DNA of 10,267 bases, taken from Candidatus Micrarchaeota archaeon (GTDB lineage Archaea; Micrarchaeota; Micrarchaeia; Norongarragalinales; Norongarragalinaceae). The notes beneath the pieces are model-generated. The model had not been told where the DNA came from. It saw only the letters and a program-made list of their open reading frames with translations, and did no database searches. The stretch lies in assembly GCA_037444485.1 (NCBI GenBank), contig JBBIMI010000026.1, positions 1 to 10,267 on the forward strand, written 5' to 3'. Position 1 is the stretch's first letter. Each line of letters opens with the position of its first letter. Positions 1 to 10,267 of this stretch are shown here, piece by piece. A program made the position numbers and the translations under genes.

Positions 1-238
1 CACGTGGTCGCGCAGCTTCGCGCGGACGTGAGTCCTGCTCGTGCTGCCATGCTGTTGAAGGGCGCGAGCGCGTACGACTTGTTTCGTTTCGAGCCAAAGT
101 TTCGCCTGCGCTAGGCGCGGCCACTTCTGGGGCCGCGCGTACTTTCACCACAGTGTCGGCGACGCCGACTTGGAAACAGTCGCGCGTTACGTGCGCGAGG
201 ATAACGACGCCCGCCAGCGAACGCTGGCAGCATACTAG
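1..238 (+). pseudogene. tnpA: IS200/IS605-family Y1 (HUH) transposase, 3' part; 5' end outside window; frameshifted
   Basis: Frame 1 reads HVVAQLRADVSPARAAMLLKGASAYDLFRFEPKFRLR then TAG (112-114). Frame 2 from 116 reads RGHFWGRAYFHHSVGDADLETVARYVREDNDARQRTLAAY* (TAG 236-238). Together these give the TnpA pattern H..LKG.S...RYW.GHFW..Y..SVG...Y (catalytic Tyr, TAC 188-190). Restoring 2 nt (TA[CT]GG) gives R-Y-W-R-G-H-F-W. Confidence 0.9.
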
Positions 239-269
239 AAATCCTACGCCTTTAGGCGTAAGTTATTAA
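1..269 (+). mobile_element. IS200-like element copy A (tnpA remnant plus right end; left end outside window)
   Basis: The tnpA stop is followed directly by AAAT (239-242), the hairpin CCTACGCC-TTTA-GGCGTAAG (243-262) and TTAA (266-269). 181-267 matches 1662-1748 at 85 of 87 positions. Confidence 0.85.
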
Positions 270-376: not shown

Positions 377-583
377 ATGTTGAACGTGAGCAAGGCCGGG
401 ATAAGTAGTTTGGTTGCAGGACTCGTTTTGCTTTTATTGCTTTGGTTTTTTGTTTTCGCGCCACCGCATTACGGCAGCGTTTCCGCTGGCTTGCTTGCAG
501 CGATCGTCACAGCTGTCTTTGGTGGATTGATTATTATCGGAGTGCTGTTGCTGGTAATAGGATTAATAATCTTGATTATATAA
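377..583 (+). CDS. Small hydrophobic membrane protein (68 aa, about two TM helices), function unknown
   Basis: ATG 377 is preceded by GGGGTG (367-372, RBS-like), so it is preferred over GTG 365. Two long hydrophobic runs are separated by PPHYG. TAA at 581-583. Confidence 0.7.
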   Translation: MLNVSKAGISSLVAGLVLLLLLWFFVFAPPHYGSVSAGLLAAIVTAVFGGLIIIGVLLLVIGLIILII

Positions 584-605
584 TCTTAATGCGAATCTTA
601 ATGCG
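582..605. repeat. Perfect 12-bp tandem duplication AATCTTAATGCG x2
   Basis: 582-593 and 594-605 are identical; the repeat spans the predicted left junction of element B. Confidence 0.9.
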
Positions 606-800
606 TTTGGTTGAGAAATCCGCGAGTTCAGTCGCGGGACGAATCAACTCTAATGTTCGTTATGCTCGTAATTGTTTCGCTTCGCTTGTTTGCCGATTTT
701 TGCAGGTGCAGCGTTTCGCGCGCTGATAGTGGCGCCAGCCGCCAAGCCTGGCAACATGCAACATGCCGGAATCCAGCGCCTTTAAGCGTAGGTTGTTTAA
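602..800 (+). mobile_element. Non-autonomous IS200-derived element, copy B (199 bp, diverged)
   Basis: TTAA at 598-601, AAAT at 616-619, left hairpin CCGCGA-GTTCAG-TCGCGG (620-637). A 26-bp block (670-695) is identical to 1564-1589. Degenerate tnpA 3' end at about 716-768. Right end GAAT + CCAGCGCC-TTTA-AGCGTAGG (769-792) + TTGT + TTAA (797-800). Confidence 0.75.
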
Positions 801-830
801 TTTGAGTGTTGAGTTCAGGCCGGCAATCAA

Positions 831-1448
831 TTAACTCGTCTTGAGTACTTCGTTCTGCGTGCTCAGCGCGGTGTACGCTGTTTGGTTTGCTCCAGTCCAG
901 TAAACAACCCACGCGTTTTCAGGCAAGCCGCTTGCGAAAGCAAGCAAAGCGTTTTCGTCGATTCCAGGGCAGTACGCGGTTGCTTCGCTGGAGTTTAATT
1001 CTTTTACGAGTTCTTTTACGAGAAAAGCGCAGCCGAACGCGTCGTTCGCGCCAGTGATTTGTGTGAGTGCCGGCAGTTTTCCAGAGTTTATCAGCGCTTC
1101 TTCGCGCAGCGCGATGCTTGTGCGTTGGTTGCAGTCGTTTACAAGCATTTCAGGCCTGTACTTGAATTTTAAGACGTCACTGTAATCTCTTTTTTCTACT
1201 GTCGGGCACCGCGAATGCTGGTTTTTAGCGATTATCACGGTGGCGGTCCACGCTTCTCCAACTTGAGTCAAGCTTGAAACGCGCGCTTCGCTTGGATTGA
1301 CGCCTTGTTCCGCCAAGTCTTTCAGCAATAGTTTTTGGACTTCGTCCCTAGTCAAAGCAACTTTCTGTTGTTGAGGAATAAGGGTGAAAGCGATTAGGAA
1401 CGCGCCTAGTATTATTGTGAGGATTACTGCACTCCGATACCCGTTCAT
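831..1448 (-). CDS. Membrane-anchored or exported hypothetical protein (205 aa)
   Basis: Long ORF. ATG at 1448 lies about 10 nt downstream of GGCGGGAG on the minus strand (alternative start GTG 1496). N-terminal hydrophobic helix AVILTIILGAFLIAFTLI and four Cys in the soluble part. No family recognised. Confidence 0.8.
   Translation of the reverse strand: MNGYRSAVILTIILGAFLIAFTLIPQQQKVALTRDEVQKLLLKDLAEQGVNPSEARVSSLTQVGEAWTATVIIAKNQHSRCPTVEKRDYSDVLKFKYRPEMLVNDCNQRTSIALREEALINSGKLPALTQITGANDAFGCAFLVKELVKELNSSEATAYCPGIDENALLAFASGLPENAWVVYWTGANQTAYTALSTQNEVLKTS
999..1022. repeat. Perfect 12-bp tandem duplication TTCTTTTACGAG x2 (in-frame, LVKE-LVKE)
   Basis: 999-1010 and 1011-1022 are identical. 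Confidence 0.9.
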
Positions 1449-1506
1449 TTCAAGAATACTCCCGCCTTTTCTTCCTTCAATACTTTTTCGCTTCACTAGT
1501 TTTTAA

Positions 1507-1751
1507 TACATTTGGCTGAGAAATCCGTTGCGTTCAGGCAACAGACGAACTACGGATGAATCAAATTGTTTCGCTTCGCTTGTTTGCCGGTTTTTTGTAG
1601 GTGCCTGCGGGGCGGTTGGCTTCGTTCGCGTGGGCGGCGCGGGCCTCGACGCCTCGTTTCGCGCGCGTTACGTGCGCGAGGATAACGACGCCCGCCAGCG
1701 AACGCTGGCAGCATACTAGAAATCCTAAGCCTTTAGGCGTAGGTTATTTAA
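1507..1751 (+). mobile_element. Non-autonomous IS200-derived element, copy C (245 bp)
   Basis: TTAA at 1503-1506, AAAT at 1521-1524, left hairpin CCGTTGC-GTTCAG-GCAACAG (1525-1544). 1636-1661 matches tnpA 61-86 at 19/26, and 1662-1748 matches 181-267 at 85/87. Right hairpin CCTAAGCC-TTTA-GGCGTAGG (1724-1743), TTAA at 1748-1751. Confidence 0.85.
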
Positions 1752-9296: not shown

Positions 9297-10267
9297 ATGA
9301 AATATACCTATCTAAGCATACTTCTATTTCTCGTATTATCTTCAGTTGCAAATGCAGAATTTATTAAAATTGGCGATGCTGGAACTGGCGTCGGAGATTA
9401 TGCATGTAATGGCGGAAGTGGCCCATACTATGTGCGATATACCCTGTACAAAGATAACGCTTGTTATTCTTCCATAAATAATTGTGATCCAAATTACAAG
9501 TATGGCGGAAGTTCTGTTGCAACTACTGTAACTGTACCAGCAGGAACTTTTAGTAGTGGTGAGCTTTGCGCTGGTTTATCCCGCTATTATACTGGAAATT
9601 CGCTGATAGATTTTAGAATTAATGGCAATAGTGTTTGCCAGTTTTATGGTGGAATAAATCTATCTTGGGACGCTGTTTATTGCTGTTCTCTGCAAGCAAA
9701 TTCGTTACAAATGGGACAGCCAAATGTAATTTCTTTTGTTACACCAGATATCGATTCTGGTTTCAATTCGGCGCATGTTCTCGCCTTAACAACTGGTTTG
9801 TCTGTCTCTGATTGGTGCGGTACAGTAAATCCGCCAAAAATTGCTGCAGAACTTAGATTATATTATTCTTTACCGTCTCCTTCGCCGAGTCCGTTGCCGT
9901 CTTCTTCTCCTTCTTCGTCACCTTCTCCTTCGCCTAGCCCGTCTCCAAGTTCTTCTCCCTCTCCTACTCCGTCTCCAAGTTCTTCTCCCTCTCCTACTCC
10001 GTCTCCAAGTTCTTCTCCCTCTCCTACTCCGTTTCCGTCGCCTTCAACTTCTCCAAGTCCTTCGCCTAGTCCCACTCAGTCTCCAACTCCATCCTTACCG
10101 CCCGTGTCTTTCACTCCAACGCCTTCAGTCTCGCTTAGTCCTTCGCCGACTTTGTTTCCTTCGCCTAGCGTTTCGCCTTCAGCATCGCCGTCGGCTTCGC
10201 CGTCTGTGGTTGCGTCGCCGTCGCCTTCTGTTTCGCCGTCGGTTGCGCCGTCGCTTGAAGTGATTGA
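9297..10267 (+). CDS. Secreted/surface protein: signal peptide, Cys-rich domain, Ser/Pro/Thr-rich stalk; 3' end outside window
   Basis: Absent from the track because it has no stop in the window. ATG 9297 begins [27 protein letters not shown] (AxA cleavage site). About 170 aa with 8 Cys, then PSPSP... from 9873; frame open to 10267. Confidence 0.85.
9939..10032 (+). repeat. 30-bp coding tandem repeat CCGTCTCCAAGTTCTTCTCCCTCTCCTACT x3 ([10 protein letters not shown])
   Basis: Identical units at 9939-9968, 9969-9998 and 9999-10028, plus CCGT. Confidence 0.95.

Follow-up and report, generated by a model that had tools for sequence, protein, structure and literature searches.

Two short repeats in the genome of a Candidatus Micrarchaeota archaeon, each bracketed by TTAA and each without a transposase gene, raise the question of what they derive from and how they came to lie where they do. 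They are referred to here as copies B and C and are found in the window, i.e., the whole stretch of DNA that was analysed, which is the entire contig C26 (10,267 nt) of a 58-contig assembly of 961,727 nt (0.96 Mb). A third and broken copy, A, enters the window from the contig start. An earlier reading of the letters of the window (the sequence-only reading) had taken the three for members of a miniature, non-autonomous family derived from IS200, in which a tetranucleotide guide, AAAT, specifies a TTAA site, as in IS608 of Helicobacter pylori. The analysis reported here makes it very probable that B and C are palindrome-associated transposable elements (PATEs), that is, internally deleted, transposase-less derivatives of an IS200-group element of about 575 nt that carries tnpA only and no tnpB. 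Anatomy, copy number, exact boundaries, derivation from tnpA, covariation of the hairpins, and covariation of guide and tetranucleotide were all observed in the DNA.

Anatomy of copies A, B, and C

The features of the three copies are collected in Table 1. In copy B, the linker TGCGTTTGGTTGAG (602-615) leads from the left TTAA to AAAT at 616-619, i.e., positions +15 to +18 of the element, and AAAT is followed directly by a hairpin at 620-637, in which the arms CCGCGA (620-625) and TCGCGG (632-637) enclose the loop GTTCAG (626-631). An outer stem is formed by GGTTGA (609-614), which pairs with TCAACT (644-649). The right end comprises GAAT (769-772), two hairpin arms (773-780 and 785-792), TTGT, and the closing TTAA. 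In copy C, AAAT (1521-1524) precedes a hairpin at 1525-1544, in which CCGTTGC (1525-1531) and GCAACAG (1538-1544) flank the same GTTCAG and pair at 6 of 7 positions; an extra ACGAACTACGG segment comes after it. The right end of C reads AAAT (1720-1723), a hairpin with 7 of 8 pairs (1724-1743), TTAT, and TTAA. Copy A closes in the same manner, with TTATTAA after its hairpin, which is one T below the family norm. The left-end arrangement of TTAA with AAAT at +15 to +18, the other features of B and C, and the right-end layouts of all three copies were thus present as the sequence-only reading had described them. By analogy with IS608, the left TTAA of each copy would belong to the target.

Positions 1662-1719 of copy C are the last codons of tnpA, and its final 90 nt are 97% identical to copy A. 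The junction that B and C had been said to have in common, the 12-mer CGTTTCGCGCGC, is indeed found at 712-723 in B and at 1655-1666 in C, but the motif on its own is unspecific, as it has 76 matches in the genome at no more than one substitution, 13 of them near a left end.

Table 1. Features of the IS200-derived copies in the window (positions in nt).
Feature	Position	Strand	Description
Copy A, 3' part of tnpA	1..238	+	Broken, cut by the contig start; stop codon TAG 236-238; PF01797 match 95-199
Copy A, right end	239..269	+	Guide AAAT 239-242; hairpin CCTACGCC/TTTA/GGCGTAAG 243-262; linker TTA; TTAA 266-269
TTAA, left flank of copy B	598..601	+	Putative target and left cleavage site, outside the element on the IS200/IS605 model
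Copy B, probable PATE of 199 nt	602..800	+	Decayed interior derived from tnpA; TTAA 797-800
TTAA, left flank of copy C	1503..1506	+	Putative target and left cleavage site
Copy C, probable PATE of 245 nt	1507..1751	+	Repeat family D4; TTAA 1748-1751

Copy number and boundaries of the family

Both ends were searched against the 0.96-Mb assembly by BLAST and with nhmmer profiles. The left end gave 36 matches, 35 of which included the terminus, and the right end gave 29, of which 27 were distinct after the reverse strand of one palindrome and one locus present on two overlapping contig ends had been dropped. TTAA occupies 0.6% of genome positions. Of the 35 left ends, 30 had it in register, the others reading TTAA plus one A (three ends), TCAA (one), and TTGA (one); of the 27 right ends, 22 did, with four being one linker T short and one reading TTAG. 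The seed profiles contained the TTAA columns, which introduced a small bias; the ends without TTAA on C47 (TCAA) and C31 (TTGA) were nevertheless recovered. Homology extending past the TTAA boundaries, or other copies lacking TTAA there, had been named as grounds for abandoning the sequence-only reading. Outside the TTAA, whether upstream on the left or downstream on the right, the flanks of the 35 left and 27 right ends were unrelated, the divergence setting in exactly at the tetranucleotide, and the other copies had TTAA at the boundary far above the chance level.

The guide of the 35 left ends was AAAT in 27 cases, AATT in three, AAAC in three, GAAT in one, and TGAC in one. The base 5' of the left TTAA was T in 22 of 29 in-register cases (hand count), which suggests that the preferred site may be TTTAA.

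The left junction of copy B lies within a perfect 12-nt tandem duplication (AATCTTAATGCG twice, window 582-605), which also overlaps the stop of the open reading frame at 365-583. Perfect tandem duplications with repeat units between 8 and 30 nt number 633 in the genome (1.77% coverage), and 3 of the 35 left junctions lie inside one. An enrichment at left junctions is not claimed, since such duplications are probably concentrated in spacers.

Seventeen complete short elements of 46-247 nt were found, amounting to 0.35% of the assembly, and their ends match those of the tnpA-bearing copies. The whole architecture of copy B, about 200 nt, recurs at no fewer than nine other loci with unrelated flanks and 69-85% identity, and the closest match to B elsewhere is C11:895-1103 (85%). 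Copy C has sister copies on contig C3 (C3:49772 and C3:55546, 92.7% alike). Together with the tnpA-bearing copies that have the same ends and the tnpA codons in the tail of C, the short elements bear out the proposal of a non-autonomous family derived from IS200. Comparison with Rfam returned only two sub-threshold matches, both to psRNA14 (scoring 26 and 24 bits, where the gathering score is 60) and both on the minus strand of right ends.

The shortest form, C6:21438-21487, is a terminal-only element of 46 nt between two TTAAs, in which left positions +1 to +18 (through the guide) are fused to the right hairpin. Another, C7:39184-39378 (191 nt), is a clean internal deletion of a full-length element with a junction of its own; it has kept the tnpA ribosome-binding site and start codon as well as the final codons of the gene, which leaves a 12-codon mini-frame (MPSVSQQTLAAY).

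The short copies might never have transposed, in which case B and C would be immobile relics of full-length insertions that had undergone internal deletion and decay in place. Independent deletions do occur, as the C7 element with its own junction and the 3'-truncated copies on C19 and at C3:4600 show; moreover, the short elements are only 66-93% alike (best pairwise identity, the 46-nt stub aside; 85% for B and 76% for C), and several hairpins have decayed. However, the complete architecture of B, including an interior unlike that of full-length left ends, stands at nine other unrelated loci, and the core TTGTTTCGCTTC adjoins 20 left-end-proximal positions. So many identical independent deletions are unlikely, and amplification after deletion is the simpler reading. 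The spread of B as a short element is therefore favoured over repeated deletion in place, and the relic explanation is considered improbable.

tnpA in this genome and in a relative

Fragments of a Y1 transposase gene (PF01797) were found on C17 (42 bits), C19 (32.5 bits), the window (24 bits), and C27. The fragment on C17 retains H-V-H and the Tyr of RYVREDN. Relative to this open copy, tnpA of copy A has a 2-nt deletion that results in TAG at about 109-111 and a frameshift, as seen in the translations and in tblastn matches with one TAG. The 3' part of the Y1 tnpA lies immediately 5' of the same right end in copy A and at five further contig starts. Contig ends are close by (84-280 nt) at eight left ends and at no fewer than seven right ends, indicating that full-length copies broke the assembly. 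Joined from two copies, the full element would measure about 575 nt. One left-end type, on C24, opens into an uninterrupted 5' reading frame (MPSVSEHCPGQNAHHLQWCTKYRFKML), and an intact tnpA is likely to exist in this genome, as judged from this open 5' piece and the open 3' piece on C17.

Full-length left ends (e.g., C24:1-203; L019 90-140) contain a second GC-rich stem-loop, GCGGCGC...GCGCCGC, immediately 5' of GGAGG and the tnpA start. By analogy with IS200, this structure might control translation or block read-in transcription.

An intact element was found in a relative (G049:C8). It spans 594 nt from TTAA to TTAA and encodes a TnpA of 140 amino acids, with no tnpB within the element. The protein scored 96 bits to PF01797 and showed 69% identity with the C17 fragment across 78 residues. 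Its best match among solved structures was TnpA of ISDra2 from Deinococcus radiodurans (2xm3, E 9e-15), with DHVHVV and SYVRE aligned with the HUH motif and the region of the catalytic Tyr; IS608 TnpA (2a6m, E 7e-8) and two Sulfolobus proteins matched as well. ISDra2 itself carries tnpB and has the pentanucleotide target TTGAT. In the genome of the window, the sole TnpB-like match (C11:28975-29172, PF07282, 67 bits) lies in an open frame of 569 amino acids near a contig end, and nhmmer found no end of the window's IS200 family at this locus.

A Y1 enzyme associated with hairpin repeats that have a conserved tetranucleotide 5' of the stem, many of them in intergenic DNA, also brings to mind repetitive extragenic palindromic (REP) sequences served by a domesticated transposase (the REP-associated tyrosine transposase, RAYT, or REPtron). 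In the accessible parts of two accounts, such systems consist of a single-copy domesticated tnpA and short REP hairpins of about 20-40 nt (PMC3333891, PMC5581495). By contrast, tnpA of this family lies inside an element with the same left and right ends and is multi-copy (at least seven right and eight left ends at contig ends), and the short elements measure 167-247 nt with two different ends. Domesticated REP-like repeats are therefore regarded as a highly improbable explanation of B and C.

Structure and covariation of the hairpins

The left ends follow the order TTAA, predicted cut, 7 nt, GGYTGA, G, guide AAAT, hairpin (CC...GG foot; GTTCAG or TTCA loop), ATGAA, and TCARCC, and the right ends the order RAAT, 8-bp hairpin (TTTA or TTCA loop), 4-nt linker, and TTAA. 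At either end, the distance of the hairpin from the terminus is fixed. DNA folding predicted that 16 of the genome's 35 left ends, among them all six copies of the best-preserved left-end type, have the guide and the hairpin enclosed by an outer stem of GGYTGA and TCARCC (counted from the folds). For the analysis of pairing, 51 left ends (34 from this genome and 17 from relatives) were scored by script. Exact outer-stem pairs were GGCTGA/TCAGCC in 14 and GGTTGA/TCAACC in four of these ends.

The 51 ends contained 31 distinct left hairpins, 21 with at least six consecutive pairs from the foot. Across 14 distinct 6-bp foot stems, the Watson-Crick pair types per position numbered 1, 2, 4, 4, 4, and 3. 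When the 3' arms were re-dealt, 52.5 of 84 cells were paired, the observed 84 of 84 being by selection. The presence of up to four pair types per position indicates that covariation at the level of the family is real. The sequence-only reading had called the left hairpins covarying; this stands for the family, with its 31 hairpins and compensatory changes, and does not stand for the B/C pair alone, in view of the insertion in C and of the two C3 sisters of C, in which the arms of the left hairpin do not pair.

In the relative G011, a solitary left end was found (C24; L050 1-90) in which the outer stem reaches the predicted cleavage site and thereby forms a long perfect palindrome (TTAGCGCAGTAGGCTGAG ... 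TCAGCCTACTGCGCTAA); the genes that come next are unrelated, and tnpA does not follow. At a right end on the minus strand in the relative G033 (C41; L053), about 44 nt with two further hairpins interrupt the 5' arm of the hairpin, whose foot and loop have been kept, as has the TTAT downstream.

Guide-to-site rule

In IS608, A+16 pairs with T-3 and A+17 with T-4, and the guides AAAG and GAAT correspond to the sites TTAC and TCAA (PMC5934647, accessible portion). Further pairs are C-3 with G-35 and T-4 with A-34; the third site base remains unpaired, and the distances from site to hairpin are 19 and 10 nt (PMC3201880, likewise in the portion accessible). The pair at the fourth position was deduced from the sequences printed in these two papers (PMC5934647, PMC3201880, same portions). 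Applied to AAAT, the IS608 register gives TTAA. In this genome, the rule was satisfied in 27 of 34 left ends.

Covariation of guide and site was analysed in 68 genomes of the same order. A left-end pattern that left the fourth guide base and everything upstream free, with the tetranucleotide unspecified, matched 13 of the 68 genomes, and the reversed control matched none. In all 17 left ends of these relatives, the predicted tetranucleotide was found 14-16 nt before the guide, with flanks that differ between copies; the classes were AAAT-TTAA (10 ends), AAAA-TTAT (5), and AAAC-TTAG (2). A right-hairpin pattern returned 108 rows outside this genome and 31 control hits overall. For 53 of the 108, chosen by eye for paired arms (8 left-end-like rows and about 47 rows with unpaired arms were excluded), the predicted tetranucleotide ended 8-11 nt after the hairpin foot in 44, and it did so in 41 of the 47 right ends with at least 7 of 8 arm pairs. 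Seven guide classes were seen on the right, namely AAAT-TTAA, AAAA-TTAT, GAAA-TCAT, GATA-TCAT, GAAC-TCAG, GAAG-TCAC, and GAAT-TCAA. Permutation of the guides, which serves as a descriptive control and does not yield a probability, gave 7.6 matches on average and 15 at most for the 17 left ends, and 10.2 on average and 20 at most for the right ends, where 0 of 5000 permutations reached 44. Guide variants in the relatives covary with the flanking tetranucleotide, and this natural covariation supports the rule by which AAAT would specify TTAA.

Two relatives have unequal ends, G044 with TTAT (left) and TCAT (right) and G033 with TTAA (left) and TTAT (right), and each end fits its own guide. This argues for paired TTAAs that are specified by the guides and against a target duplication, in line with the earlier proposal that TTAA at both ends merely mimics one.

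These ends also bear on another origin of the repeats. TTAA on both sides of most copies could be a true target-site duplication, as left by MITEs (transposable elements of miniature size with inverted repeats) of a cut-and-paste DDE transposon. Terminal inverted repeats are, however, absent: the left end starts with TGCGTTTGG and the right end closes with GGTTATT, and by eye the two are not inverted repeats of each other. In addition, the interior derives from a Y1 tnpA, and the homologous elements of the relatives have the unequal, guide-matching tetranucleotides just described. A DDE-type origin is accordingly hardly credible.

Proposed mechanism of mobilisation

Homology with IS608 and ISDra2 suggests what the chemistry, the cleavage positions, and mobilisation in trans may be. 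Full-length copies would supply a dimeric Y1 HUH transposase that binds the subterminal hairpins on the top strand in single-stranded form. The guide, which takes up the four positions 5' of each foot (AAAT at the left end, AAAT or GAAT at the right end), would pair with the tetranucleotide, with guide base 1 contacting site base 2, guide base 2 contacting site base 1, and guide base 4 contacting site base 4. The predicted cuts would follow the TTAA that lies 18 nt 5' of the left hairpin and the TTAA that lies 8 nt 3' of the right one, and the strand would leave as a circle and re-insert 3' of another TTAA. As the two guides call for one and the same palindromic site, an insertion would be bracketed by TTAA without duplication.

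Age and activity of the copies

Several observations weigh against the PATE reading or the guide rule. Besides the low identity between the short elements given above, the right hairpin of B (773-792) is weak, with 5 Watson-Crick and 1 G-T pairs of 8, and the left hairpin of C is disrupted by the insertion, its minimum-energy fold being CCGT...ACGG instead. The three copies with the guide AAAC still adjoin TTAA or TTAA plus one A. Full-length tnpA is absent from the assembly, in which the long copies all break at contig ends; copy A and C27 each have a frameshift, and a left-end type other than that of C24, present on C19, C3, and C12, has stops in the 5' part of tnpA. As to the relatives, 9 of the 53 right hairpins lacked the predicted tetranucleotide, the set of 53 had been selected by eye from 108, and copies within one genome are related, so that the permutation figures overstate significance. 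No empty site was detected in 40 relatives, none of the same genus, with the DNA of 271-2400 as the query, which matched only repeat ends and one conserved gene piece. Nor was an empty site, an excision joint, or a circle junction found in assembled metagenome contigs, in which the apparent joints were cross-matches between copies and the contigs of one sediment metagenome from another study (run X2) end before the junctions.

The low identity between the short elements, the weak right hairpin of B, the weak left hairpin of C, and the AAAC copies at TTAA make the family look old, and B and C may be dead, that is, no longer mobile. A better preserved short copy lies at C9:32866-33091. No sign of current activity was seen in the sequence data examined. 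A tandem head-to-tail insertion, which is expected if the right TTAA is reused, was not observed, as none of the 27 right ends directly precedes a left end. Neighbouring elements were co-oriented in 14 of 19 same-contig pairs, which is not significant (P = 0.064) and no more than a hint of the bias to the lagging-strand template that characterises IS200/IS605 elements. On C11, elements change direction somewhere between 10.3 and 18.9 kb. Element orientation could reflect the direction of replication.

The contigs of run X2 match the unique genes at 372-587 and 870-1442 of the window with roughly 90-95% identity, which indicates that a close relative of the organism is present elsewhere. At the right contig end (window 9864-10252), dense direct repeats with periods of 12 and 18 nt (families D1-D3) lie within open frames and probably encode a repetitive low-complexity protein.

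Discussion

The elements fit the IS200/IS605 and PATE traits that were tested and do not show those by which REP/RAYT systems or inverted-repeat MITEs are defined. They resemble IS608 in the Y1 HUH TnpA, the subterminal hairpins on one strand, the 4-nt guide 5' of the foot, and the register of pairing, and the AT immediately 3' of the left hairpin corresponds to A+42 and T+43 of IS608. The left site lies 18 nt from the hairpin foot, compared with 19 nt in IS608, and the right site 8 nt, compared with 10 nt, the latter distance being found with AGGACGTCAT in some relatives. The elements differ from IS608 in having no tnpB, in their guides (AAAT and AAAT vs AAAG and GAAT), in their sites (TTAA at both ends vs TTAC and TCAA), and in the outer stem GGYTGA/TCARCC, which the linker forms with the sequence 3' of the hairpin.

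IS200 of Salmonella is longer than the 594-nt element of the relative. Both are small and have tnpA as their sole gene; their DNA sequences are unrelated. The second stem-loop of the full-length left ends recalls the structure in the 5' untranslated region of IS200 (PMC4513863, accessible part).

The PATEs of Haloquadratum walsbyi, as far as they are described in the accessible text of PMC3119063, are too short for a transposase, lack inverted terminal repeats, and have near-terminal palindromes in common with IS605-type elements. The same text reports that they arise by deletion of the core, including 52-bp terminal-only forms, and that their conserved terminal oligonucleotide is the targeting sequence. 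All these traits fit the present elements, and the 46-nt element at C6:21438-21487 is the counterpart of the 52-bp forms. The parents differ, in that most parents of Haloquadratum PATEs are IS1341/tnpB-bearing, whereas the parent here is of the IS200 group with tnpA only and resides in a DPANN host with a 0.96-Mb assembly.

The use of one palindromic TTAA at either end, a right spacing of 8 nt, the left outer stem, and the series of seven guide classes are variations within a known mechanism. Beyond this, it is tentatively suggested, as a possibility somewhat short of probable, that the IS200 clade of this order forms a natural allelic series of the IS608-type guide, in which single-base changes have repeatedly retargeted cleavage and insertion. 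The seven classes, in which the fourth position shows every Watson-Crick pair and the first shows both A:T and G:C, would represent this series; the lineage of the window would have converged on TTAA at both ends, and the outer stem, which would clamp the linker, would be a new structural feature.

A 2026 survey found IS200/IS605 in more than 65% of Micrarchaeota genomes, and the word PATE is absent from its accessible text; in that text, IS200/IS605 genes and not non-autonomous derivatives were counted (PMC13343696). The present analysis documents a compact IS200-group element together with its probable PATEs in DPANN. For annotation, about 47 ends or elements account for many contig breaks and several odd intergenic hairpins of the assembly. 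The cross-genome table of guides and sites provides an independent natural confirmation of the IS608 guide rule, and the TnpA and the sets of ends with seven specificities are available for the engineering of single-strand DNA insertion. If the convergence on TTAA is true, either strand of any TTAA would be usable by this family, and the right end of the element itself would regenerate the target.

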